From contig JACJZI010000009.1 of assembly GCA_020635655.1 (NCBI GenBank), positions 79,456-143,455 on the forward strand: a DNA stretch of 64,000 bases, written 5' to 3'. This stretch comes from Flavobacteriales bacterium. Lineage in GTDB: Bacteria > Bacteroidota > Bacteroidia > Flavobacteriales_F > PHOS-HE28. Every line of letters begins with the position of its first letter. Within the stretch, counting starts at the first letter, position 1. The notes beneath the pieces were generated by a model. The model was not told where the DNA came from, made no database searches, and saw only the letters and a program-made list of their open reading frames with translations. Made by a program: the position numbers and the translations under genes. Below, piece after piece: positions 2 through 44,971 of this stretch.

Positions 2-2038
2 GTGGGCTGCAACCTGGATGTGCGCGTAAAGGATGAAAAAGTGGTGGCCATCCGCGCACCCTACGACGCCGAGGCCAACAGCGGGCACACCTGCCTGAAG
101 GGCCGCTACGCCTTCAGCTTCTACGACCACCCCGACCGCCTGCGCACTCCGCTGATCAAGCGCGACGGGAAGTTCGAGGAGGCCACCTGGGACGAGGCCT
201 ACGACTTCATCGTGGACAAGCTCACCCAGCTGAAGAAGGACCACGGGCCGGACAGCATCGCCGGCATCAGCAGCGCGCGCACGCCCAACGAGGAGAACTA
301 CCTGATGCAGAAGTTCATGCGGGCGGTGATCGGCACCAACAACATCGACTGCTGCGCGCGCGTGTGCCACAGTCCCACCGCCCTGGGCATGCAGCGCACC
401 TACGGCACCGGCGCCGCCACCAACAGCATCGACGACCTGAAGGACACCGACACGATCATGGTGATCGGTGCCAACCCCACCGACGCACACCCGGTGACCG
501 GCGCCCGCATCAAGCAGCAGGTGATGAAGGGCAAGACGCTGATCGTGATCGATCCGCGGCGCATCGAACTGGCCCGCTATGCCAAGTACCACCTGCAGCT
601 GAAGCCCGGCACCAACGTGGCCCTGCTGAACATGATGATGCACTACATCATCGCCGAGGGCCTGGTGGACGTCGCCTTCATCGATGCGCGCACCGAGGGC
701 TGGGAGGAATTCCGCGACCAGCTGCTGGCGCTGGACATCGCCAAAATGGAACAGGTCACCGGCGTGGACCGGAATCTTGTGCGTGAAGCCGCCATCTCCT
801 ATGCGAAGAGCCCCGCGGCCATGAGCTTCCACGGACTGGGCGTCACCGAACATTCGCAGGGCACCTTCACCGTGATGCAGATCGCCGACCTGGCGATGAT
901 GACCGGCAACATCGGCCGGCGCGGCGTGGGCGTGAACCCGCTGCGCGGGCAGAACAACGTGCAGGGCGCGGCCGACATGGGCGCGCAGCCGCACCAGGGC
1001 GCCGGCTACTTGGACGTGACCAAGGAGGAGGCCAACAAACTGTACCAGGAGCACTACGGCGTGCCCGTGCCCAGCCACATCGGGTGGAAGATCCCCGAGA
1101 TGTTCAACGCCGCCATCGACGGCCGGCTGAAGGCGCTCTGGCTGATCGGCGAGGACGTTGTGCAGACGGACCCCAACACCAACAAGGTGATCAAGGCCAT
1201 GGACAGCCTGGAGCTGCTCGTGGTGCAGGAGCTCTTCATGACCGAGACGGCGAAGCATGCGGACGTTGTGCTGCCCGGCGCCAGCTTCCTGGAGAAGAGC
1301 GGCACCTTCACCAACGGCGAGCGCCGCGTGCAACGCGTGAACGCCGTGGTGGAACCGCTGGAGGGCACCAAGAGCGACGGCCAGATCATCGTGGACCTGA
1401 TGAACCGCATGGGTTTCGAACAGCCCGACTACCACCCCTCCTGGGTCCTCGAGGAGATCAGCCGCATCGTGCCCTTCTTCAAGGGCATCCGCTGGGAGAC
1501 CCTGGGTGAGAACGGCAAGCAATGGCCCGTGGCGGCGGACGGCACGGACACGCAGATCCTGCACACCGAGACCTTCAAGCGCGGCAAGGGCAAATTCTTC
1601 ATGCCGGAGTGGATCGAGAGCAAGGAGGTGGCCGCGCACGGGAAGGACTACCCCTACATCATCACCACCAACCGCGAGCTGGAGCACTACAACTGCGGTA
1701 CCATGACGCGCCGCACCCGCAACAACGACATCCTCACCGAGGACGTGCTGCTGATCCACCCGGACGATGCCGCCGCCAACGGCCTGGCCGAGGGCGATAT
1801 GGTCTGCGTGGAAAGCCCGCGTGGCAAGGTGGACATCAAGGCGCGCATCACCGACGAGGTGAAACCCGGCATCCTCTCCAGCACCTTCCATTTCCCGGAG
1901 ATCATGCTGAACATCATCACCAGTGATGTCCATGATACGGAGGCGCTCTGCCCCGAGTACAAGGTGGTGAGCTGCAGGATTAGGAAGGCCAAGAAGGGAC
2001 ATCTCCGCAGCCATGGGGAAGTGGTAAAGAAGAACTAA
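2..2038 (+). CDS. fdhA: Formate dehydrogenase alpha subunit (molybdopterin oxidoreductase), 5'-truncated by window edge
   Basis: 678-aa ORF open to the window start. It has MopB-family signatures (GHTCLKGRY, NNIDCCARVCHSPT active-site loop, C-terminal dinucleotide-binding domain). The active-site residue is Cys where FdhF has Sec. fdhD and Moco genes lie elsewhere in the window. Confidence 0.9.
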   Translation: MGCNLDVRVKDEKVVAIRAPYDAEANSGHTCLKGRYAFSFYDHPDRLRTPLIKRDGKFEEATWDEAYDFIVDKLTQLKKDHGPDSIAGISSARTPNEENYLMQKFMRAVIGTNNIDCCARVCHSPTALGMQRTYGTGAATNSIDDLKDTDTIMVIGANPTDAHPVTGARIKQQVMKGKTLIVIDPRRIELARYAKYHLQLKPGTNVALLNMMMHYIIAEGLVDVAFIDARTEGWEEFRDQLLALDIAKMEQVTGVDRNLVREAAISYAKSPAAMSFHGLGVTEHSQGTFTVMQIADLAMMTGNIGRRGVGVNPLRGQNNVQGAADMGAQPHQGAGYLDVTKEEANKLYQEHYGVPVPSHIGWKIPEMFNAAIDGRLKALWLIGEDVVQTDPNTNKVIKAMDSLELLVVQELFMTETAKHADVVLPGASFLEKSGTFTNGERRVQRVNAVVEPLEGTKSDGQIIVDLMNRMGFEQPDYHPSWVLEEISRIVPFFKGIRWETLGENGKQWPVAADGTDTQILHTETFKRGKGKFFMPEWIESKEVAAHGKDYPYIITTNRELEHYNCGTMTRRTRNNDILTEDVLLIHPDDAAANGLAEGDMVCVESPRGKVDIKARITDEVKPGILSSTFHFPEIMLNIITSDVHDTEALCPEYKVVSCRIRKAKKGHLRSHGEVVKKN

Positions 2039-2082
2039 TTGGGGCAACTACGGCAAATCATGGAGCGCTCTAGATTCGCATA

Positions 2083-2907
2083 ATGGATATTTTGTGGACA
2101 GGACCTGCGGTAAAAGCCGCATGGGACAATCGCGAAGACCTGGCAGACGGTTGGCAACGACTTCTGAACCTGCTACTTGGACGCAAAACTAGAATTGCGT
2201 TTACTGGCTTGCCCGGTGTTGGCAAGACCGTGCTTTTTGATTGCTTGACAGGCCCTGGGTTGCGTTCAACATATCAACCTCCAAAGACTGCTTCTGCTGA
2301 GGAAGATACAGGGACCATAAACGCCAAACGCAGAAGGATGGCGTTGACTGTGGTGCCTGGTCAAAGCGCTTCGACGACTCGTATGGACACCCTGGAGCAT
2401 CTCTTCGACGTAGAAAAACCCGTGGAAGGGGTAATACATGTTGTCTCCCATGGCTATATTGAGGTAAGGAACCTCGCAGCACGAGAAACGCTTGTGGCCT
2501 CGGGACTCAAGTCGATCGCGGACCTGCGTGCTCACTACCTGGCCCAGGAAATTGAAGATATCAAGGACTTGTGCCACAGAATGCGCAGATGCCATCAAGA
2601 CCAGAAACGGCGGCCGTGCTGGTTGATTGTCGCAGTAACCAAGGCTGATTTGTTTCCACACGAAATGTCCATTGTCCGTCCCTACTATTCACCTGAAAAT
2701 ACCAGCGCTTTTTCAGGAGTCTTGGACCAATTTCAAAGACAAGTTGGCGAGGACAATTTCTCATGGTCAGCGCTGCCTGTAGCTGGGCATCCACAAGACT
2801 TTGAATGGGGGGACGAAACAACAAAGTCGTCGATATCTGTCGAAGAACGGAATGCATATTTGCGTCAGTTCACGGCGGTAATTCAGAGTAAATGCTTGAC
2901 CAGATGA
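2083..2907 (+). CDS. Small GTPase-like P-loop NTPase, unassigned family (candidate defence sensor)
   Basis: 274-aa ORF. Walker A GLPGVGKT at nt 2206-2229, G3-like VVPGQ at 2350-2364, G4 TKAD in LIVAVTKADL at 2638-2649. No other domain recognised. Lies in low-GC DNA. Confidence 0.75.
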   Translation: MDILWTGPAVKAAWDNREDLADGWQRLLNLLLGRKTRIAFTGLPGVGKTVLFDCLTGPGLRSTYQPPKTASAEEDTGTINAKRRRMALTVVPGQSASTTRMDTLEHLFDVEKPVEGVIHVVSHGYIEVRNLAARETLVASGLKSIADLRAHYLAQEIEDIKDLCHRMRRCHQDQKRRPCWLIVAVTKADLFPHEMSIVRPYYSPENTSAFSGVLDQFQRQVGEDNFSWSALPVAGHPQDFEWGDETTKSSISVEERNAYLRQFTAVIQSKCLTR

Positions 2908-3359
2908 ACGACTCGAGAGAGCCATATAGCAATGCGACTGACCCGGCTTTCAAGCATTCGAAAGAAGATTTGAAAAGCCTCCTCGACCTGGCCGAGGAGA
3001 TTGAAGGGCGCCTAGAAAAGGCAACAACAAGGCTCAATCTGTCAATCGGCGGATTAGTAGTATATTCTATTGGGGGGACCGTCTTTGCCTTTTACCAAAC
3101 TCCTAGAGCTTTTCCTACCGAGTGGCATGGCCTGTTGTTCTTTTTCCTGTTCGTCATACTCATACTCATAGTTGCCTCGCCATTTCTTTTCCGCATGAAC
3201 AAGAAGCGCAAAACAGAAGCGCGTGCTTTGAATGAGGTACTAGAGGTACTTCATGAAGTCGAATCGGCAATTACGCAGAGAGATGCTTGGAGCGCTCTCG
3301 AAAGAGCTGAGTTCCGGATTCGACTTTCAAGATTTGCTGTACGCAACCGCATGAGGTAG
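2904..3359 (+). CDS. Small 2-TM membrane protein coupled to the GTPase-like gene
   Basis: The ATG at 2904 overlaps the upstream TGA (ATGA). An alternative ATG is at 2892. Two hydrophobic helices (LSIGGLVVYSIGGTVFAFY and GLLFFFLFVILILIVASPFLF) are flanked by charged helical segments. Confidence 0.7.
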   Translation: MNDSREPYSNATDPAFKHSKEDLKSLLDLAEEIEGRLEKATTRLNLSIGGLVVYSIGGTVFAFYQTPRAFPTEWHGLLFFFLFVILILIVASPFLFRMNKKRKTEARALNEVLEVLHEVESAITQRDAWSALERAEFRIRLSRFAVRNRMR

Positions 3360-3425
3360 TGTTACTCATGTATGGACATCGTACATTCCTGGTCCTTCCA
3401 TAGAATTGGAGATGCTCCTGACTGA

Positions 3426-3588
3426 CGCTATGGATTCTTTCAGGATAGCGCTTTCTACATACCGGAAATCATGCTCACCGTGGTCAGGCAACGGTGGCGA
3501 TTCACAGGCGATGTGTCCGGATTACGAGCTAGTGTCTTGTCTCATCAGGAAGGGGAGGAAGGTGATCTCACACAGGCCGGAGAGGTGA
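3426..3588 (+). pseudogene. Decayed, frameshifted copy of the fdhA 3' end
   Basis: My own translation gives GFFQDSAFYIPEIMLTVV in one frame, matching fdhA GILSSTFHFPEIMLNIIT. After a frameshift near 3480-3495 it gives DSQAMCPDYELVSCLIRKGRK, matching DTEALCPEYKVVSCRIRKAKK. Confidence 0.8.
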
Positions 3589-3736
3589 GTGTAAAGGCCT
3601 AGGTTGCCCGCCCTGAGCTTGTCGAAGGGTTTGTGTGTGCCCCCTTGCAAATACCTCGGGGTCGCGCTTTTCGCTACAATTCCTCGCCGGATTACCGACT
3701 CCGGGCTTTCCGCTTCAATCGCTCACGCGAGATGCG

Positions 3737-5443
3737 TCAAGAGTGCAAACGTTCCTCAAGCGCCTTGACCAATGCATCGATTGACCCTCTTCGTCCTTCG
3801 ATAAGACTTTCGAGCCCGGCAGCGGCGGCACAATTTGAAACAATACCCTTGACCTGCGACTCGACCGATTTCGACCACTCCTTCCCTTGATCTTTGCAGT
3901 TCAGTTTCATTCTGTCTGACCAGCTTCCTTTGCTCGTCCTCATGATTGATGGCTTGTATTCAACTCGCAAGTCAGACAATAGCCGGGCCTGATATATCTC
4001 TGGCTTGATGAAGTCCTCTAGCTCAGAGTCATTGAACCCTTTCGCGCTCGCTAGGTGATACTCAGAATGGTCCAATGTCCCTTGGTCAAGTGCCAGCTCA
4101 ATGGCCTTCCTTCCGGCCTGGTCATTATCCAAGAAAGCATGGACGCCACACAGATAGCTCTTGTGCAGGCGCACCTTATAGCCAAGGTTTGACGCTCCAA
4201 CCAAAGGATCAATCGACAGGTTACCATCAGCAAGTGCTCTACCAACGTCCTTTGACAACAAGGGAAGCCATGCCCTCAATACCTGTTCGTCCTCCTTGCC
4301 CTCGCAAACCAATATCAGACTGGCAGTTGCAAGGTTATCAGCAATACGTACCCCTAGCGCATCCCTCACCGCACTGATATGACCAGCCGGAGCAGCCTTG
4401 CCCTTCTGCACAATGATGTTCCTGCTTGGGTGGTACCGATCAACAAGTACAGGCGAGTGGGTGGTGAGGATAACCTGATGACTCTTGGCGATATCGGCTA
4501 GTACCTCTCTGAGCCGGTGAATTGCTCGAGGATGCAGATGTGATTCAGGTTCTTCGATTGCGAGAATTAAGCCCTTTGTGCCGAGTGATCGCTGACTGAC
4601 ATGCCGTAAGAGCGAAATGGCCGTAAGACTCTTGATTCCGTCCCCCTTCATCTCAAGCTCTGTTTCAGTTCCGTCATTTACCAGTACCCGCGCTGACCTA
4701 CGCAGGGCGCGGGAGATACCGCCACCCGACTTAAGGGTTACGCTCCTGACCTCGGGGATGAAGCTTGCAACCATCGTAGTGAGCTCATTGCTAAGCGACT
4801 CTAGTATTGGTCGCTGAATCTCTTCAATGCTCTTCACAAGCTCGCGATACTCCTCCTTTGCTTCAAGCTGTGCAAGTTCCCGTGCCAGTAGATCCTCGAC
4901 GACCCGTTCTGCCATATCTGAGGGCCGAAGGGCGGGTATGTATTGAATGTCTAGTCGCTCGTTGACGAATCGCGCCATCTCTTCTTTCCATTGATCTGCC
5001 TGCGGCCGCTTTGTCAGCTTCGTCTTGGCCTTTCCGGGCAGTACAATATCCAGCAGGGCATCACTTGATCCACAAGAGAGTTTGAGTTTGAGGTTCGTGG
5101 CCAACTGAATCTTGACCTTCCTATTGAAAGCCGTCAGCTCTGCAGCAGTCAGCTCAAACTCCAAGATGAATTCCGACCTGCCATCTGGATAGTCCTTCTG
5201 GGATTGTACTGGATAATCTCGCTTCCAATCGTATGTGTTCTCACCATAGGCATACCTCAGCTGGCGCTGAGCTCGGAAGTAACGTGAACGCGATAGCAAG
5301 CCCAGCGAGAGGACCATTGCTTTCAGAACATTCGACTTCCCCTCATTATTCGGCCCAACCAGCACCGCGAAGTCTCCAAGTGGGAGCTTATACGCCTTTG
5401 TGATGGAGCGATAATCGCTCACGGTGAATGTCACGAGTTTCAT
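3737..5443 (-). CDS. OLD-family nuclease (ABC-type ATPase + TOPRIM), stand-alone
   Basis: 568 aa. Walker A GPNNEGKSN near the N-terminus, Walker B/D-loop LAIEEPESHLHP, TOPRIM glutamate motif LILVCEGKEDE and DxD motif FLDNDQAG. GC about 52% in the hand-counted 4401-4500 sample. Confidence 0.85.
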   Translation of the reverse strand: MKLVTFTVSDYRSITKAYKLPLGDFAVLVGPNNEGKSNVLKAMVLSLGLLSRSRYFRAQRQLRYAYGENTYDWKRDYPVQSQKDYPDGRSEFILEFELTAAELTAFNRKVKIQLATNLKLKLSCGSSDALLDIVLPGKAKTKLTKRPQADQWKEEMARFVNERLDIQYIPALRPSDMAERVVEDLLARELAQLEAKEEYRELVKSIEEIQRPILESLSNELTTMVASFIPEVRSVTLKSGGGISRALRRSARVLVNDGTETELEMKGDGIKSLTAISLLRHVSQRSLGTKGLILAIEEPESHLHPRAIHRLREVLADIAKSHQVILTTHSPVLVDRYHPSRNIIVQKGKAAPAGHISAVRDALGVRIADNLATASLILVCEGKEDEQVLRAWLPLLSKDVGRALADGNLSIDPLVGASNLGYKVRLHKSYLCGVHAFLDNDQAGRKAIELALDQGTLDHSEYHLASAKGFNDSELEDFIKPEIYQARLLSDLRVEYKPSIMRTSKGSWSDRMKLNCKDQGKEWSKSVESQVKGIVSNCAAAAGLESLIEGRRGSIDALVKALEERLHS

Positions 5444-5491
5444 CTCAGCAGTTGTTCGGATACGTGTATGTTGAATTCAATCGCACGAATT

Positions 5492-5836
5492 CTACAACCT
5501 ATCATACTTCGTCGCCACCCCTTTCGCCTTCTCGACGGGGTACTTGGCGGCGTTCTTCCGCAGCTTCTGGCGCACGGCCGTTCCCAGATCCAGGTCCAGA
5601 TCATGGGCCAGATAGGTGAGCAGGATGGCAATATCCGCCATCTCCTCTGCCAGGGCATCGCGGTGCTCTTGGGCCAGGGCTTGCAGGTCGGCGTCCTTGG
5701 CCCATTGGGTGTGCTCCATCAGCTCGGCGGCTTCCAGGGCAATGCTCGTGCTCAGGGTCCGCAGGTTGTGGAACTGCTCCCAATCGCGCTCCTTCCGGAA
5801 GGCCAGCAGTTCATTGCGCAGTTCGTCGCTCAGCAT
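5492..5836 (-). CDS. MazG-like nucleotide pyrophosphohydrolase (DCTPP1-type, single domain)
   Basis: 114 aa. Metal-binding EAAELMEH and EEMADI motifs in a four-helix MazG-type layout. GC about 64%. Confidence 0.8.
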   Translation of the reverse strand: MLSDELRNELLAFRKERDWEQFHNLRTLSTSIALEAAELMEHTQWAKDADLQALAQEHRDALAEEMADIAILLTYLAHDLDLDLGTAVRQKLRKNAAKYPVEKAKGVATKYDRL

Positions 5837-5848
5837 GGGTCAGGGTGT

Positions 5849-6778
5849 TCATCCAACGAAACGTTCATTGTGCCAGCTCAGGAACTCGGGGTCGGGTCGC
5901 TGGCTGTCCAGTTTGGGGATCACGGCCAGCGGCTGGTCGTGCAGGCGGTAATAGGCCTTGCCGTTGTACCACTGCTCCTTGATGCGGTCGCTCACGCGTA
6001 TCCGCAGCTCGGGCGTCACGGTCACCAGCCCCGCATCGAAGAGCTTGTGAAAGTCAGAGCGCAGCAGCATGCCATTGGAGATGCGGTGCGGCCCACCGCT
6101 CGCGTACGACTTGATATGTGCCGCTTCGAGCACCGGCAAGGTGGATTCACCGGTAATGGCACAACGCTTCTGGTACGCCTCGCCCACCAGGATCTGGAAA
6201 GACCCCTGGCCCAGGCGGGCTCTGGTCAGGAAGAGCTCGCCGTAACGCGGTCCGCCATATTCCGCGGCCGGCTCCGCCACCAGATCTTGGACGGCCTTGT
6301 TCTGCAATCGTTCCTGCACCGCATTCCAAAGCCACGCGCCTTCGCTGGTCTCCGTATCGTAGGTCTGTCCCTTCACAATGTTCGGCGCCCAGTTGGGAAG
6401 TTGTATCCAGTTCATGCGCTCGAAGAAGAACGGCTGCACCAGCACGCTGCACCCGATCTCCAACACCTCACGCGGCCCGGAGGACAACCGGCGGATGCGC
6501 TTCTCCACTTCCAGGTATGTGGCCGCCCCGTTCTTCTCGCCGAATGCTTCCCACGCCATGTTCAGCGGCAGCTTCGAGAAGTTCACGAAGTAGCCGCCGC
6601 CTGCAATGCAATTGTGCGGAGCCTTCAGCTTGAAAAGAAAGGGCGTTCCAGCGGGCAGCGTCGTGAAGGGTGCTTTGCCGCTCGGCTGCCAGAAGTTCAC
6701 CTCATCGAAGTCCCGCTCCGAAAGGAAGGTGTACCAATCAAAGTCCGTGACGCCGGCCCAGAACTTCATGCATACCAA
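5849..6778 (-). CDS. HNH_2-type endonuclease with unassigned N-terminal domain (putative restriction-like enzyme)
   Basis: 309 aa. The C-terminal CAITGESTLPVLEAAHIKSY...NGMLLRSDFHKLFDAGLVTV matches the HNH_2 (PF13391-type) signature. The N-terminal ~190 aa are not recognised. An alternative start is at 6769. Confidence 0.75.
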   Translation of the reverse strand: MVCMKFWAGVTDFDWYTFLSERDFDEVNFWQPSGKAPFTTLPAGTPFLFKLKAPHNCIAGGGYFVNFSKLPLNMAWEAFGEKNGAATYLEVEKRIRRLSSGPREVLEIGCSVLVQPFFFERMNWIQLPNWAPNIVKGQTYDTETSEGAWLWNAVQERLQNKAVQDLVAEPAAEYGGPRYGELFLTRARLGQGSFQILVGEAYQKRCAITGESTLPVLEAAHIKSYASGGPHRISNGMLLRSDFHKLFDAGLVTVTPELRIRVSDRIKEQWYNGKAYYRLHDQPLAVIPKLDSQRPDPEFLSWHNERFVG

Positions 6779-6813
6779 AGGAAGGGATCACCGCCCTTCC
6801 ATTTCCGGTAAAT

Positions 6814-7146
6814 CTACCCCAACCCATTCTCCCTGGCCCACAGCACCAGGGCCACCTGGCCGCGGATGCCGTAGCGCTCGAAGATGCGCGTGCGCCACCT
6901 GCTGAGGGTGCCGGGGCATACGTGCATGCGGTCGCAGATCTCCTTGCCGGTGAGGCCCACATCCCGCGCACGGTCTCCGCCTCGGGACCCCGCGCCAAGG
7001 AGCAGCACCCCAGGGTCCACTTCGTGTGAACCTGCGGGAAAGCCAGGGTGCGCAGCCAGGAAAAGCGCGTACCTTCCCTTATGCGTCCGATCTATCTTGC
7101 TTGTCTCGCGATCTGCCAAACGCCCTACATCCCGATCATCGGGCAA
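6814..7146 (-). pseudogene. LuxR/GerE-type HTH C-terminal fragment (possible gene remnant or small regulator)
   Basis: The C-terminal GLTGKEICDRMHVCPGTLSRWRTRIFERYGIRGQVALVLWARENG fits the GerE HTH pattern. No receiver or sensor domain is present. The upstream part overlaps the divergent T9SS gene and contains a 40-nt repeat. Confidence 0.3.
6961..7000. repeat. 40-nt repeat, copy 1 (atcccgcgcacggtctccgcctcgggaccccgcgccaagg)
   Basis: 37/40 identity with 8672-8711 in direct orientation. Contains the imperfect palindrome ggtctccgcctcgggacc. Confidence 0.8.
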
Positions 7147-8649
7147 ACATCCTTCCAGGGTCTATTCGGCGGCTCCGGCCGGGAGGTGGGCTCTTCCGTA
7201 GTTCAGACAAGTGATGGGGGTTACGTGCTCGCCGGGTCCACCACAAGCACGGGCGCAGGGGAGGCTGATGTCCTGCTTATCCGGACCGACCTCAACGGCG
7301 ATACCCTCTGGACGCGGACATACGGTAGTCCCGGTCCTGAGTTTGCTAGTGCATTGCGGCGAACCAGCGATGATGGGCTGATCATTGCGGGCTTCACGGA
7401 TACGGCCAATGCAGGAGCCAACCTTGCTTTTCTAATGCGCACGGACGCGAACGGCGACCTTCTATGGACCAAGACCTATGGATTCGGGTCGGTCTCGGCC
7501 GCCACATCGGTAGAAGGAACATCCGATGGTGGCCTCATCATGGTGGGATACGCAGGTGGGTCCGGTTTTGGTCCCTGGATGTTCGTAGTCAAGACGGATG
7601 CCGTCGGGGATACGCTCTGGACAAGGCGATACCAACATCTCGGCGGTTCCATTGTGGCCACCTACGCATCTTCCGTGCAGGAGATGCCCGGCGGGGGATA
7701 CGTGGTGTTGGGCGATGCCAATGACCTGACCGTGTGCTACGTCATATTAGCTGAGAACGGTGCCAATTTGAGTTCCGGCACCTTCAGCGGAGTCCAGAAC
7801 TATGGCAATGACCTCAATGTCCTCGCACTGGCCAATGGTGGCTATGTGGTAGTTGGTACAACGGCCTCTCCTGGGCCCAATGCGCTCGACATCTTCATGA
7901 TCCGGCTCGATTCCCAGTTGCAGCAGGTTTGGACCCGGACCTATTTCGGCACGAACAGCGAATACGGAAAAGATGTGCGGCAAACGACGGATGGCGGGTT
8001 TGTGATCGTTGGTGTCACACACAGTTTCAATAGCTTCGGTAATGACCACGGTGATGCGTATCTGGTATGCACGGACTCGACCGGGAACCTGCTTTGGTCC
8101 AAGTCCTATGGCAGTATTCAATACGACGAAGGCAGATGTATTCTTCAGACACAGGATGGAGGTTTCATGATCTGTGGCATGCAGGACTTGACAGGAATGA
8201 ACGATATGAAGCTGTATATGGTGAAGGTCGACGCGAACGGCTCAAGTAGCTGCAACCAAGCAGACCCGGCCACGGTCACCTCCGCCATTGCATCGCAACG
8301 TACGTGGCTATCTACAAATTCTTTCATGGGTTGCAACATCGGTTCCCCGCAATTCACGTTCGGTCGTGGAATACCTTTCTCCGATCCATGCACCAATGGG
8401 ATCGAGGAAGACCCCTCGTTCCCGGACGTCCTGATCCAAGGCACCTGCATTCGTGACGAGATATGGATGACCGGCACGGACCAAGGCGATTTGATCATGC
8501 TCTATGACCTGACAGGCAGGTTGCTGAGGACGTACAAGGCGGAAGCGGAAAAGACCATGATCCCGAGTAAAGGGTTAGCCCCAGGCCAATTCATTGTGGT
8601 GTATTCGGATGGCCAAAAGAAGTACACGTTCAAGTTGACCATGTTGTAG
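7048..8649 (+). CDS. Secreted repeat protein with T9SS C-terminal sorting domain
   Basis: The signal peptide is better from the ATG at 7081 (MRPIYLACLAICQ). Recurring DGGY..G....G..D..L...D..G..LW...YG repeats and a C-terminal T9SS-type beta-sandwich tail. Paralogue of 11807-13450. Confidence 0.85.
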   Translation: MRSQEKRVPSLMRPIYLACLAICQTPYIPIIGQTSFQGLFGGSGREVGSSVVQTSDGGYVLAGSTTSTGAGEADVLLIRTDLNGDTLWTRTYGSPGPEFASALRRTSDDGLIIAGFTDTANAGANLAFLMRTDANGDLLWTKTYGFGSVSAATSVEGTSDGGLIMVGYAGGSGFGPWMFVVKTDAVGDTLWTRRYQHLGGSIVATYASSVQEMPGGGYVVLGDANDLTVCYVILAENGANLSSGTFSGVQNYGNDLNVLALANGGYVVVGTTASPGPNALDIFMIRLDSQLQQVWTRTYFGTNSEYGKDVRQTTDGGFVIVGVTHSFNSFGNDHGDAYLVCTDSTGNLLWSKSYGSIQYDEGRCILQTQDGGFMICGMQDLTGMNDMKLYMVKVDANGSSSCNQADPATVTSAIASQRTWLSTNSFMGCNIGSPQFTFGRGIPFSDPCTNGIEEDPSFPDVLIQGTCIRDEIWMTGTDQGDLIMLYDLTGRLLRTYKAEAEKTMIPSKGLAPGQFIVVYSDGQKKYTFKLTML

Positions 8650-8671
8650 GCATGCGGGACCTGGGTCTCAG

Positions 8672-8711
8672 ATCCCGCGCCGGGTCTCCGCCTCGGGACC
8701 CTGCGCCAAGG
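8672..8711. repeat. 40-nt repeat, copy 2
   Basis: Direct repeat of 6961-7000 (37/40). Lies in the convergent intergenic gap after the stop at 8649. The hairpin-capable core could also act as a terminator. Confidence 0.8.
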
Positions 8712-8721
8712 CTCATTCCTT

Positions 8722-22097: not shown

Positions 22098-22250
22098 CTA
22101 GCGCTTCCTGCTCGCCTTGGCCTCCGGGTTGAACGCCAGGCAGCGGTCGATCCAAAACTCGAGGTCGGATTCGGAATCGTAGCCCGAGGGTTCGATGCGG
22201 AGGTAACCGAACATGGGCTGGAATGGACGGTCACCAGGTCGAGGTGTAGC
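22098..22250 (-). pseudogene. 3' fragment of a tfoX-like gene (duplicate of the 3' end of 26250-26597)
   Basis: Encodes ...GYLRIEPSGYDSESDLEFWIDRCLAFNPEAKASRKR, versus GYLRIDPAGYDSEADLEFWIDRCLAFNPEAKASRTRVG in the intact gene. A 54-nt core (22107-22160 vs 26265-26318) matches 52/54. No N-terminal half is present. Confidence 0.85.
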
Positions 22251-26249: not shown

Positions 26250-26597
26250 CTACCCTACCCTTGTCCTGCTCGCCTTCGCCTCCGGGTTGAACGCCAGGCA
26301 GCGGTCGATCCAGAACTCCAGGTCGGCCTCGCTGTCATAGCCGGCGGGGTCGATGCGGAGATAGCCCTTCATCGGACGGCCACCGTGCACCATCTGCGTG
26401 GCACCTTCACGCTTCGTCAGCTGCTCCACCGCGTCCGGCCCCACGCGTGCCATGAGCCCGCCCTGGTAGAAGCCGATGCACATCTTGTCATCGACCATGT
26501 AGCAGTAGCCGCCGAACATCTTCTTGCCGACCCACTGCACCCTGCGCCGGTGCAGGGCCTTGTCGATGCGCTCGAGGAGGTATTCGTCGACGGGCAT
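26250..26597 (-). CDS. TfoX N-terminal domain protein
   Basis: I trimmed to the ATG at 26597. KKMFGGYCYMVDDKMCIGF is typical of the TfoX_N domain. Confidence 0.8.
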   Translation of the reverse strand: MPVDEYLLERIDKALHRRRVQWVGKKMFGGYCYMVDDKMCIGFYQGGLMARVGPDAVEQLTKREGATQMVHGGRPMKGYLRIDPAGYDSEADLEFWIDRCLAFNPEAKASRTRVG

Positions 26598-26728
26598 GGG
26601 CGGGTACGTATCGCACCAAAGTACCGCTATTCGAAGAAGCCCTCGGACCTGTAAAGAACACCGCACATCCAGTGGCTGAAGGTGTAGCACGTTCGCGGAA
26701 CGACCATTAGTTTCTACATCAGAAACGA

Positions 26729-43235: not shown

Positions 43236-43802
43236 TCAAAGGTCGGAAGGTGCGTTGATGTTGTGGAAGAGGTCCGACGACCACCCCTCCGTTCCGGGCT
43301 CGATGTCCAGGTAGCGTCCTTCCACCAAGGCAAGGGCGTCCGTCATCTTCAACACCTCGTCATCGATGCAACGCTGGAACGTGGGCAGACAGCCGCGGTG
43401 GTAGGCGGCCACAAGAGGTTCCGCGCCGCCGGTGTGCCGGGGCACGACCGCTTCAGCCTCACTTTCCAGTTCGCGCATCACATGCTGCAGCAGGCGGGCA
43501 TCGATGTTCGGCATGTCGCAGGCCAGCAGCAGCACACGATCGTTGCTGGCGTAGCGCAGCGCCGTGACCAGCCCGCCGAGCGGGCCTTTCCCGGGACGTA
43601 CATCGCCGATCACGAACGGACCGACATGATTATACTTCTCCGGGTCACCGATCACCAGGAGTTCCGACACGAGCGGCTCGACCAGGTCCATCGCGCGATC
43701 GAGCAGCGTGCGGCCCTCCAGCTCGATCAAGGCCTTGTCCCGACCCATGCGGCTGCTTTGGCCACCGGCCAGCACCGCGCCCGTCCAGCCGTCGCCATTC
43801 AT
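43236..43802 (-). CDS. mobA: Molybdenum cofactor guanylyltransferase MobA
   Basis: I trimmed to the ATG at 43802 (ATGA overlap with the moeA stop). GAVLAGGQSSRMGRDKALIE nucleotide-binding motif. Confidence 0.88.
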   Translation of the reverse strand: MNGDGWTGAVLAGGQSSRMGRDKALIELEGRTLLDRAMDLVEPLVSELLVIGDPEKYNHVGPFVIGDVRPGKGPLGGLVTALRYASNDRVLLLACDMPNIDARLLQHVMRELESEAEAVVPRHTGGAEPLVAAYHRGCLPTFQRCIDDEVLKMTDALALVEGRYLDIEPGTEGWSSDLFHNINAPSDL

Positions 43803-44971
43803 TGCGTCGGAATGTAGTGGACCTCGACCGGCTCGCCCGCTTCCCACTCCCGCCTGTCCGCCGGCAGGTAAGCGAGGGCGTGCACACCCACGAGCGACCG
43901 CAGCATGTGCGATCCTTCATCGGCCAGCAGCGTTACCTGGCCACCTTCGACGTGTGCCGCCCGGAATTCGGCCCGGCCACCCTTGACCTCGATGCCCTCA
44001 GACAAGGGAAGGAGCTCGCTCTTCGGCCAGGGATCCCGAGCCCCCTGCATGGCCTTGAGCAAGGGAAGTACGTATTCCCAAAAGAGGACCATCACCGCGC
44101 GCGGATTCCCAGGCAGACCGAACACCGGTCTTCCGTCCAGCATGGCGAACAGCATCGGCTTGCCCGGCTTTTGGGCCACGCGATGGATGATGATATCCGC
44201 GCCCAGTTCCTCCAGCACGGAACGCACGATATCGTGATCGCCGACCGAGACGCCGCCCGTGGTCACGACCAGGTCCGCACGGGCCTCCCCGAGCGCGTCC
44301 CGCAACAAATGGCGCTCATCGGCCACGGTCGCGATCCCCACCTCTTCCGCATGAGGCAGGAGGGATGCATGCAGCATGGGCCCATTGCTGTTGAAGATAT
44401 CTCCAGGTCGCGGCGCCTCGCCCTCCTCCACGAACTCATTGCCCGTACACAGGACCAGGACGCTCGGGCGTTCCACGACCTCCAGCTCCTTGATCCCCAC
44501 CGACGCCAGCAGACCGATGGCCGGAGCATCGAGCGGGACTCCCGCGTCATGCACCACTTCACCGGCGCGCATCTGTTCACCTTGACAGCGGACGTTCGCA
44601 CCACACTTCAGCCTGGGATCCTGCAACACGATCCGGTCGCCATCACGTTGGACATGCTCCTGCATGATGACCGTGTCGGCTCCCGCAGGGATGGGTGCTC
44701 CGGTGAAGATCCTCGCGCATTCACCGCCGCCCAGTGCGTGGGTCATGGCATCTCCCGCAGGGATGGCTGCGACCACGCGACGCTCGGCAGGACCCTCGAA
44801 CGCAAGGGCATAGCCGTCCACCGCGCTCATGGCGAAGAGCGGGTGGTCATGAGGTGAAACGATGTCCTCCGGCGAAATGCGGCCGCCCGCAGCCTCCAGG
44901 CGAATGGATCGCAATGGCATGCGCGACGCACAGGCCTTGATCCGTTGCCGCGCCTCCTCCACAGAGATCAC
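43799..44971 (-). CDS. moeA: Molybdopterin molybdotransferase MoeA
   Basis: I trimmed the 626-aa track ORF to the GTG at 44971, which overlaps the TauE stop (GTGA) and gives (M)ISVEEARQRI. MSAVDGYA, TGAPIPAGADTV and TTGGVSVGD motifs. Confidence 0.88.
   Translation of the reverse strand: MISVEEARQRIKACASRMPLRSIRLEAAGGRISPEDIVSPHDHPLFAMSAVDGYALAFEGPAERRVVAAIPAGDAMTHALGGGECARIFTGAPIPAGADTVIMQEHVQRDGDRIVLQDPRLKCGANVRCQGEQMRAGEVVHDAGVPLDAPAIGLLASVGIKELEVVERPSVLVLCTGNEFVEEGEAPRPGDIFNSNGPMLHASLLPHAEEVGIATVADERHLLRDALGEARADLVVTTGGVSVGDHDIVRSVLEELGADIIIHRVAQKPGKPMLFAMLDGRPVFGLPGNPRAVMVLFWEYVLPLLKAMQGARDPWPKSELLPLSEGIEVKGGRAEFRAAHVEGGQVTLLADEGSHMLRSLVGVHALAYLPADRREWEAGEPVEVHYIPTQ

Follow-up and report, generated by a model that had tools for sequence, protein, structure and literature searches.

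Small gene cassettes between displaced copies of the fdhA 3' end: a probable case of integrase-free, homology-anchored insertion repeated at one gene end

In the stretch of 64,000 nucleotides analyzed here (the window; Table 1), the formate dehydrogenase gene fdhA closes with a tail that differs sharply from that of its nearest strain, and behind it lie two cargo genes, a decayed second copy of the gene end and a structured element that follows fdhA directly in other genomes. Empty sites and longer arrays of the same design occur in relatives, and no recombinase lies near any of them. From these observations we infer, with moderate confidence, an integrase-free, homology-anchored insertion of the known class with long target duplication, which here has struck a single gene end many times.

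TABLE 1 Features of the fdhA locus (positions in the window)
Feature	Position	Strand	Evidence and remarks
fdhA, C-terminal 678 codons	2-2038	+	Pfam Molybdopterin 4e-86, Molydop_binding 3e-24, Molybdop_Fe4S4
Replacement (foreign) 3' end of fdhA	about 1864-2038	+	Lower GC (0.52-0.54); probably arrived with the cassette
Invariant stretch TTCCCGGAGATCATGCTGAACATCATCACCAG	1892-1923	+	Zero mismatches to L038; divergence climbs on either side
Cargo gene 1, P-loop GTPase-like, 274 aa	2083-2907	+	Pfam MMR_HSR1 2.5e-5
Cargo gene 2, 2-TM protein, 155 aa	2892-3359	+	16-nt overlap with the GTPase gene
Noncoding spacer between cargo and remnant	3360-3439	+	No fdhA homology
Displaced former fdhA 3' end, pseudogene fragment	3440-3600	+	nhmmer, alignments, reading frames
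Flavo-1-like structured element, convergent with fdhA	3656-3733	-	RF01705, 32.9 bits (below the gathering score of 42), E=8e-4
OLD-family ATPase-Toprim nuclease, lower GC	3737-5443	-	PADLOC Old 1.7e-31, Pfam AAA_15, AAA_21
MazG-like gene (5492-5836) and HNH_2 nuclease gene (5849-6778)	5492-6778	-	Pfam; host-like GC
Block wholly different from nearest strain L038	2003-8716		blastn of window versus L038; common backbone from 8717

The window opens inside fdhA, the start of which lies upstream; the product is a Cys-type NAD-linked formate dehydrogenase alpha subunit, and the complete protein has 945 aa in the relative L143. Divergence from the nearest strain, L038, jumps at about position 1864 from roughly 2 to 4% to 16 to 17%, a step that lies inside the homologous anchor (mismatch density, 2.1% over 1-1700 and 17% over 1861-2038). 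Identity to this strain is 96.1% in the gene body (1501-1859) and 84.4% in the tail (1860-2038), where the differences are mainly G/C-to-A/T changes at third codon positions, and the tail is as distant from L038 as from other species. Judged by this comparison, the present terminus is foreign in origin, as the initial annotation suspected when it called it possibly element-derived. The fall in GC from about position 1890 that it described is also confirmed, from 0.647 (1-1889) to 0.523 (1890-2038), with values around 0.5 up to about 5490, although part of the drop reflects a Lys-rich tail that is GC-poorer in every relative. The best-conserved block among all fdhA ends is TTCCCGGAGATCATGCTGAACATCATCACCAG, and the left crossover most likely fell within this zone.

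A second, diverged and frameshifted copy of the gene end had been placed at 3426-3588; the copy is real, but its bounds are now set at about 3440-3600. A profile built from 49 true fdhA ends matched 3446-3600 in nhmmer (profile positions 171-328 of 330, E=6.7e-20), the left edge falling at about 3440-3446 and a pseudo-stop TAG at 3598-3600. This remnant is a frameshifted copy of the final ~160 nt of fdhA that reads GFFQDSAFYIPEIMLTVVRQ in one frame and NGGDSQAMCPDYELVSCLIRKGRK in the next, with at least two frameshifts, and the genus-type end AGEVSVKA* is found in its third frame (read by eye against the tails of relatives). The profile match, together with the absence of further matches to the fdhA end elsewhere in the 3.07-Mb genome, indicates that it derives from fdhA and not from another molybdoenzyme. 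Aligned with MAFFT, the remnant and the working end are about 68 to 72% identical, with a 2-nt deletion, and at such identity the insertion event in the window would be old. The longest identical run common to the two copies is 8 bases, so the GTPase cassette should now be immobile by homology.

Both copies (1864-2038 and 3440-3600) align to the single fdhA end of two relatives, G083 and L076, in which the 3' flank is collinear. The Flavo-1-like element lies about 35 nt past the true fdhA stop in G083, G059, G078 and L076 and behind remnants in G019, G077 and L028, which marks it as the native neighbor of the fdhA end. With the remnant and this element collinear with the unoccupied sites of G083 and L076, the remnant is the old fdhA terminus, displaced to the far junction as the initial annotation had proposed.

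A metagenome assembler could in principle have strung strain variants of the fdhA end together, given that MAGs make up the majority of the genomes and that the Logan contig spanning the window insert (run SRR12358676, 1951-3729, same arrangement) ends at possible assembly-graph branch points. We consider such an artefact hardly credible. The copies are 65 to 92% identical with frameshifts and indels, unlike strain variants, and arrays are present in single-contig or near-closed genomes (G072, G131, G114 and G011). In addition, two independent assemblies, the Logan contig and NCBI assembly JACJZL010000001.1 (100% identity over 10.9 kb), reproduce the arrangement of the window base for base.

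The GTPase-like protein gave no match against PADLOC, and 51 relatives of it were found, some with a precomputed Pfam assignment to PF20720 (nSTAND3) and with R-M and TIR genes as neighbors. Its 2-TM partner also follows it in L141 and L142, and in P0004 the two form a single protein of 355 aa. No fdhA fragment was found beside relatives of the GTPase cassette, the closest of which is 54% identical and belongs to other taxa, and no donor sequence for the cassette of the window was found. Regarding the low-GC OLD gene just past the scar, which had been cited as a sign of successive insertions at a hotspot, its position stands; however, it lies outside the native Flavo-1-like element, so it is no member of the GTPase cassette and is part of a wider variable block. 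The MazG-like and HNH_2 segment shows 89% nucleotide identity to L063, in which it is located 8 to 9.5 kb downstream of fdhA, whereas the FdhA proteins of the window and L063 are only 76% identical.

This fdhA end is found in 72 of the 121 genomes of the genus, and half of these (36/72) carry one to six extra copies, all on the same strand and downstream of the gene, for a total of two to seven copies per array genome. Such multicopy arrays strongly bear out the alternative that the initial annotation had offered, successive insertions at a hotspot, and the fdhA loci of relatives that it proposed to align hold empty sites or other cargo rather than one common arrangement. The copies separate small, mostly single-gene cassettes with inserts of 0.3 to 3 kb (for example, in G131, which has five cassettes, G114, G096, G107 and G086), coding among others for HicA, KilA-N, an AAA ATPase and lipoproteins, or for the GTPase and 2-TM pair in the window. 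Cassettes run along fdhA in 31 cases versus 4 antisense (binomial p=3e-6, with families that are not independent). They are also tightly packed, as the median ORF start lies at +10 nt relative to the stop or pseudo-stop before it, with starts often at <25 nt and abutting the pseudo-stop, and the ORF stops abut the next remnant. Cassette families shift position between arrays: a 655-aa protein is fifth in G131 and second in G096, and a 220-aa protein is first in L028 and second in L128.

Measured from the stop, the left edges of 39 distinct remnants fall between -485 and about -70 nt, and nearly all remnants reach the stop. The edges are concentrated at -185 to -140 (24 of 42), perhaps a sign that breakage or recombination favors a particular site. 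The best match of a remnant tail is often the true tail of another genome (up to 91%); when tail grouping was set against the flanking cassette family, cassette copies were only ~80% identical and the tails were often nearest to unrelated true tails. A tandem duplication at the locus itself, taking in the fdhA 3' end and its neighbor gene, one neighbor copy being later replaced or diverged, would be very improbable as the source of these arrays, even if duplications of this kind are common and L073 has a tail copy 63 nt past the stop. Within one array adjacent cassettes are never paralogues, several extra steps would be needed per cassette, and the foreign tail would be left unexplained.

In agreement with the initial annotation, which saw neither integrase nor tRNA at the locus, we found no tyrosine or serine recombinase on the contig of the window (PF00589 and PF00239 searches), no mobility gene (integrase or transposase) in or beside the insert (Pfam and PADLOC) and no tRNA in 1-40 kb. 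Its suggestion that a recombinase encoded elsewhere might act in trans fared worse: the genome has only two tyrosine recombinases, both of Xer size and on other contigs, and no serine recombinase, with the limit that it is only 85% complete and might therefore lack such a gene. The other genomes hold four to seven tyrosine recombinases each, but none near the arrays, all being far away in 10 genomes (PF00589). Serine recombinases were absent from nine array-bearing genomes (PF00239), and no recombinase was present among 10 cassette proteins scanned with Pfam.

Site-specific integration by a trans-acting recombinase, supplied by another locus of the genome or by a helper element, would turn these units into minimal integrase-less cassettes with the fdhA-end copy as attachment site, comparable to CIMEs, ccr-less SCC elements and integron cassettes. 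The architecture fits (intact end, cargo and displaced end, with empty sites in relatives), as do the tandem arrays of co-oriented, closely packed cassettes, the tyrosine recombinases of the genomes other than that of the window, and the many left edges located 40 nt or less upstream of the invariant CCGGAGATCATGCT. Nevertheless, we regard it as unlikely. The left edges of the copies scatter between -485 and -70 nt, which leaves no room for a fixed att core, and seven remnants have their left edge on the right-hand side of ccggaRatcatgct, the motif that had been put forward as an att-like crossover core and that finds no support here. Conservation of this motif in remnants is only that seen in coding ends; the same holds position by position along the remnants, so no additional constrained site is present and the idea of a functional site in them is rejected. 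No recombinase is within reach of any array, and the two enzymes of the window genome are only Xer-sized. Single-strand folding like that of attC sites is absent as well: for three copies, each folded on both strands, the z-scores lay between -0.09 and -1.81.

Other signals were also considered. The common block CACCTTCCACTTCCCGGAGATCATGCT, judged by eye only, is not palindromic and does not resemble the 28-bp dif-like sites (11-6-11) of Xer-dependent elements such as IMEX and pdif modules, the TAnnTTTG motif is absent from the + strand of 1800-3900, and a scan for sigma-70 promoters and terminators gave nothing above shuffles. A diversity-generating retroelement was discarded, as the copies differ in all kinds of ways including indels and reverse transcriptase is absent among the Pfam-scanned genes of the window.

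The same architecture is present at a crtI-like and a tfoX-like gene of the window genome with unrelated sequences, so it is not an fdhA-specific site system, which also counts against a trans-acting recombinase. These were the only convincing cases (C17:11584 and C2:110472 were not among them) in a genome-wide self-BLAST for 3'-end duplications that was very noisy due to repeat-domain proteins and overlooked even the fdhA pair. In a genus-wide search with the crtI end, remnants were found in the genome of the window only, in contrast to fdhA, where they occur in half of the genomes having that end. Something sets the fdhA site apart, and its hotspot status might be explained if cassettes with an fdhA end on each side formed a pool that propagates itself.

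Under the homology-anchored insertion that we favor, a foreign segment made up of the replacement fdhA tail and the GTPase and 2-TM genes would have recombined into the final ~170 nt of fdhA. The working end would thus have been retained, now as foreign sequence, while the old end and the Flavo-1-like element would have been shifted ~1.57 kb downstream, where the old end then presumably decayed. More generally, incoming DNA from relatives would pair with conserved fdhA sequence, which serves as the homologous anchor; its far side has no homology, so we propose illegitimate joining there, probably no more than 0.5 kb from the end of the resident gene, or entry via an earlier remnant, and the duplication left behind would be long and vary in length. 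With an fdhA-end copy on either side, a cassette could then be transferred to any relative, or deleted, by ordinary RecA recombination, so that rows of cassettes would accumulate, the newest usually adjoining the gene and the remnants eroding from their 5' side. Located directly behind a stop or pseudo-stop and in the direction of fdhA, cassettes are probably extra cistrons of the fdhA transcript, expressed by presumed read-through. The tight packing is unexpected under random illegitimate joining, and later deletion or selection is needed to account for it.

In a strict form of insertion with long target duplication, two offset breaks, made for example by a nuclease arriving with the incoming DNA, would be filled in, both copies would be resident and identical at first, and the foreign tail would come from a separate, later recombination. 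This is a documented class, free of mobility genes and with duplications of 30 to >400 bp (PMC2853133). Nucleases abound at the hotspot (OLD, HNH, R-M and Vsr), and near-identical copy pairs do exist in L040 (100% over 54 nt), L048 (95 to 98%) and L022 (91% over 213 nt). Still, the functional tail of the window does not derive from the resident gene, many remnant tails are nearest to the true tails of other genomes and not to their own, and most cassettes lack a nuclease; we give this version a small but real share of the probability.

Tentatively, homology-anchored insertion could be taken one step further, with the fdhA 3' end working as an integrase-less integron: it would provide both an expression platform, by translational coupling, and a portable homology arm, and cassettes that each carry a gene-end copy would pass between the species of the genus by RecA and build up arrays of toxin-antitoxin, defense and surface-protein genes. 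If so, insertion with long target duplication, which has long lacked an explanation, would gain a mechanism. If the homology-arm idea is true, small defense and toxin-antitoxin genes could spread recombinase-free, and it would offer a simple design for placing cargo behind a conserved gene.

Most bacterial chromosomal gene-gain hotspots lack mobility genes. The fdhA end provides readable insertion scars, up to six in succession, in dozens of species of one genus, as the displaced gene-end copies make the order, size, orientation and content of insertions legible from sequence alone. In genome annotation, a short pseudo-end behind a conserved gene can be used as a cassette boundary marker.

Several known systems resemble parts of this process. 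e14 and phage 21 at icd, ICESt1/3 at fda and SGI1 at trmE integrate into a 3' end and bring a replacement end, carrying a tyrosine integrase that recombines at a fixed core. As in these, the displaced copy stays at the far junction and fdhA stays intact because the incoming DNA would bring a new 3' end, but here there is neither integrase nor fixed boundary and the inserts reach only 0.3 to 3 kb. CIMEs next to ICEs and ccr-less SCC elements at rlmH are likewise tandem elements at a gene 3' end, some of them recombinase-less; however, their movement depends on an identified helper integrase and on fixed att repeats that are only 15 to 30 bp long, and neither helper nor fixed site was found at fdhA. 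Integrons and CALINs share with the arrays the packed, co-oriented, mostly promoterless single-gene cassettes between repeats, the newest presumably by the expression platform, and a cargo that includes toxin-antitoxin genes and unknown small proteins, whereas IntI is absent by the array and what separates the cassettes is a pseudogene version of a host gene end instead of an attC hairpin.

In classical homology-facilitated illegitimate recombination, recipient DNA is replaced or deleted and the anchor is not known to be duplicated. During natural transformation, one end is homologous, the other is illegitimate and mobility genes are not needed (PMC3240628), and the process proposed for fdhA would be alike on these points. 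The divergence step expected at one anchor junction is present in the fdhA of the window. Insertion with long target duplication was reportedly described by Nobusato et al. in 2000. Such insertions come without mobility genes, mostly in naturally competent species, and leave direct repeats of variable length, from >30 bp up to about 400 bp; each published case is one R-M insertion whose repeats are nearly identical (Furuta, Abe and Kobayashi 2010, PMC2853133). Here too, the repeats are long (>30 bp; about 70 to 485 nt across the 39 remnants), and those of the window both match the one fdhA end present where the site is empty. Empty sites in relatives and defense-type cargo are common to both, and some of the published repeats likewise overlap a gene 3' end. 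The fdhA arrays differ in that one gene end is struck repeatedly and genus-wide, with up to six remnants, in a cargo of mainly single non-R-M genes placed as downstream cistrons, and in a gene-proximal copy that can be donor-derived, and they tie the isolated published cases to a repeated, array-forming process with an integron-like organization.

The gene for the alpha subunit of formate dehydrogenase, fdhA, shows the drop in GC content reported in the initial annotation, from 0.647 up to position 1889 to 0.523 between 1890 and the stop, with values of about 0.5 thereafter until about 5490. The diverged and frameshifted second fdhA 3' end described there could also be confirmed. This displaced and decayed copy, here called the remnant, is about 70% identical to the fdhA end in a MAFFT alignment, with a 2-nt deletion, and its translation changes frame from ..FYIPEIMLTVVRQ to NGGDSQAMCPDYELVSCLIRKGRK.., while the genus-typical AGEVSVKA* can be read at its end in the third frame. 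A DNA profile of 49 true fdhA ends of the genus matches it with an E value of 6.7e-20 over profile positions 171-328 of 330, and no further sequence resembling an fdhA end was found elsewhere in the 3.07-Mb genome. The cargo between the two copies is called the cassette.

Features around the fdhA end in the window
Feature	Position	Strand	Remarks
fdhA, Cys-type formate dehydrogenase alpha subunit	2-2038	+	Window starts inside the gene; Pfam Molybdopterin, Molydop_binding, Molybdop_Fe4S4
GTPase-like gene	2083-2907		Cassette cargo
2-TM gene	2892-3359		Cassette cargo
fdhA remnant	~3440-3600	+	Copy of last ~160 nt; MAFFT, translation, DNA profile
Flavo-1-like element	3656-3733	-	RF01705, 32.9 bits, under the Rfam gathering score; convergent to old fdhA end
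OLD nuclease gene	3737-5443	-	Past the native flank of fdhA

The organisms studied are uncultured Flavobacteriales of activated sludge. An assembly artefact is ruled out, as the same arrangement is found over 10.9 kb in a further NCBI assembly (JACJZL010000001.1, identical) and in a Logan contig of run SRR12358676, which matches 1951-3729 base for base. The ends of this contig fall inside the fdhA tail (1951) and at the edge of the Flavo-1-like element (3729), and may be branch points from strain variation in that sample. Another genome, G003 (locus L035), has a second, pseudogenised fdhA 3' region (G003:C37:308420-309681) with three in-frame TGA codons and remnants of its own; its main fdhA copy stops at a contig edge.

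The working fdhA end was suspected to be element-derived, and comparison with the nearest strain (L038, JACJZJ010000002.1; backbone identity of 97-99%) bears out its foreign origin. The two are wholly different over 2003-8716, and identity resumes at 8717. Within fdhA, mismatches rise from 2.1% in 1-1700 to 17% in 1861-2038, mostly as G/C to A/T changes at third codon positions. The body of the gene (1501-1859) is 96.1% identical to that strain, with the next best genome at 87%, whereas the tail (1860-2038) is only 84% identical and no nearer to it than to other species, which places the origin of the last ~175 nt outside the species. An invariant block at 1892-1923 separates the low- and high-divergence regimes, and the left crossover probably lies within it. 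Rival explanations for the paired ends are a tandem duplication and a strict target duplication through offset breaks.

Empty sites were found in relatives, and they identify the copy at the far junction. The remnant, a 55-nt spacer, and the Flavo-1-like element form a block (3447-3735) that is collinear with the empty sites of G083 and L076, where the same element stands ~20-35 nt past the true fdhA stop. By this collinearity, the remnant is the old fdhA end, displaced as had been proposed, and comparison with the empty site gives an insert of ~1.57 kb in the window (new tail, GTPase gene, 2-TM gene, and an 80-nt spacer). The OLD nuclease gene is part of a wider variable block and not of the cassette. 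Flavo-1-like elements stand directly after a true or remnant fdhA end in no fewer than eight genomes, one of them that of the window and the others including G059 and G078 (behind the true stop) and G019, G077, and L028 (behind remnants). They are dispersed in the genus, with 1 to 24 copies per genome, and the function of Flavo-1 is not known (PMC9723704).

Relatives of the GTPase-like protein number 51 and come from diverse phyla, and the gene downstream of them overlaps, as in the window, or is fused into one 355-aa protein. Their neighbors include restriction-modification genes and a TIR protein. The GTPase and 2-TM pair has no PADLOC model; one may reasonably guess at a membrane-effector pair for defense or abortive infection. 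Farther downstream, a MazG-like and HNH_2 pair (5492-6778) shares 89% DNA identity with a pair located 8-9.5 kb downstream of fdhA in locus L063, the FdhA of which is only 76% identical to that of the window, and this similarity points to a recent cross-species exchange of cargo within the same hotspot. Direct repeats of 40 nt (6961-7000 and 8672-8711) surround a T9SS cargo gene, the second ending 5 nt before 8717. On the same contig, before the window, the interval between a NuoF-like gene and fdhA (L143 3287-4937) holds genes for a HigB toxin, its presumed partner, a MOSC-domain protein, and a PDDEXK_3 nuclease, so accessory genes are also wedged into the 5' side of the formate dehydrogenase operon.

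The suggestion that the site is a hotspot of successive insertions is supported across the genus. We searched 121 genomes with the last 59 FdhA residues and found the fdhA end in 72, half of which (36/72) contain 1 to 6 extra copies, on the same strand, always downstream, and spaced by 0.06-3.3 kb. The clearest array is that of G131, where each of five cassettes has a remnant behind it. They encode a 150-aa protein with a small ORF, an LRR lipoprotein of 312 aa, an AAA_14/DUF4143 ATPase of 377 aa, a KilA-N protein of 277 aa, and a secreted protein of 625 aa. Beyond them lie an IS630-like element, as we read the ORFs, and a Dcm/Vsr restriction island. In the closest other relative (G024), a different 210-aa cargo is bracketed likewise, and other arrays carry HicA, Doc, Fic, and OmpA-like proteins together with many unknowns. 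Cassette families change position, one being fifth in G131 versus second in G096 and another first in L028 versus second in L128. Cassette copies common to several genomes are only ~80% identical, a divergence too high for the boundaries of the units to be mapped. The first gene after fdhA is likewise different, lower in GC, and usually co-oriented in remnant-free genomes. The maturation gene fdhD is convergent and 1-9 kb away in relatives, versus 35 kb in the genome of the window. Loci from other genera had no clear remnants. FdhA of all genus loci has a C-terminal extension of 13-16 residues, ..AKKAHLRKAGEVVEKA (1990-2038 in the window), whereas in other genera the protein lacks it and ends in ..RKSKGKYK..; the extension and the arrays co-occur in the same genus.

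Among 43 cassettes of at least 250 nt, the dominant ORF follows the direction of fdhA in 31, is antisense in 4, and is unclear in 8 (31 versus 4, binomial p of 3e-6, with families that are not independent). These ORFs often occupy the whole interval (1872/1879 nt, 645/658 nt) and start at a median of 10 nt past the preceding stop or pseudo-stop, with 19/30 starts at -5 to +25 nt and some ATGA overlaps; their stops often touch or run into the left edge of the remnant that follows. The Bacteroidetes-type TAnnTTTG motif was absent from the plus strand of window positions 1800-3900. Dead fdhA ends also contain GC-rich palindromic insertions of 19-74 nt, such as TGCCGGCCGGCAGGCAGGC and GTCGCCGAAGTGCCCTGGCGAAGGCGAC (L118 ~2390-2410 and ~2500-2540; remnants of L122, L059, and L024), some of which recur at the same site in more than one genome; these may represent REP- or MITE-like hairpins that colonize noncoding DNA.

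Two unrelated genes of the same genome have the same architecture. At 4 kb downstream of a tfoX-like gene (minus strand, 26250-26690; true end, 26264-26366), along its own strand, the final ~100 nt recur (22106-22208, 86% identity), and the interval holds lower-GC cargo. A crtI-like phytoene desaturase gene outside the window (C22:39506-41065) is followed by two decayed remnants of the final ~90 nt (C22:41655-41760 and 43798-43930), interspersed with inserts, a type found genus-wide only in this genome. Only fdhA is a recurrent hotspot genus-wide.

The att-like crossover core proposed around ccggaRatcatgct did not hold up. The left edges of 39 distinct remnants, counted in nt from the fdhA stop, run from -485 (G086) to about -70, with a mode at -185 to -140, and seven remnants begin to the right of the core; almost all reach the fdhA stop. 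Per-position conservation of the remnants equals that of the coding ends, so there is no extra constraint marking a recombination site, and the tails showed no single-stranded DNA folding (z-scores of -0.1 to -1.8). The rival explanation of a recombinase acting in trans meets little in the genome search suggested for it: the genome of the window has only two tyrosine recombinases, of Xer size and both on other contigs. Tyrosine recombinases were not found near arrays in ten genomes, serine recombinases were absent from nine array-bearing genomes, and a Pfam scan of ten cassette proteins gave no recombinase. Window positions 1-40 kb contain no tRNA, as previously noted. These observations, together with the like architecture at the tfoX-like and crtI-like genes, argue against a classical att site.

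The array anatomy fits an integrase-free, homology-anchored insertion. Conserved fdhA sequence would serve as the single homologous arm for relatives' DNA with unrelated downstream content, and the other end of the incoming DNA would form an illegitimate joint no more than 0.5 kb before the end of the resident fdhA. Only events bringing a complete tail, and thus keeping fdhA intact, would survive. As soon as fdhA-end copies lie on both sides of a cassette, standard double crossover could insert it into any genome that has just one such end, or remove it, which would account for how the arrays spread, why cassettes change position, and why fdhA stands out. Remnants would then lose their 5' part through deletion bias and keep the 3' part, in which the next ORF would have its ribosome-binding context. 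In the window, the longest identical run between the two copies is 8 bases, so the cassette is no longer mobile and stands as a fixed scar. The process at the fdhA end is best placed in a documented class with an unexplained mechanism, "insertion with long target duplication" (Furuta et al. 2010, PMC2853133).
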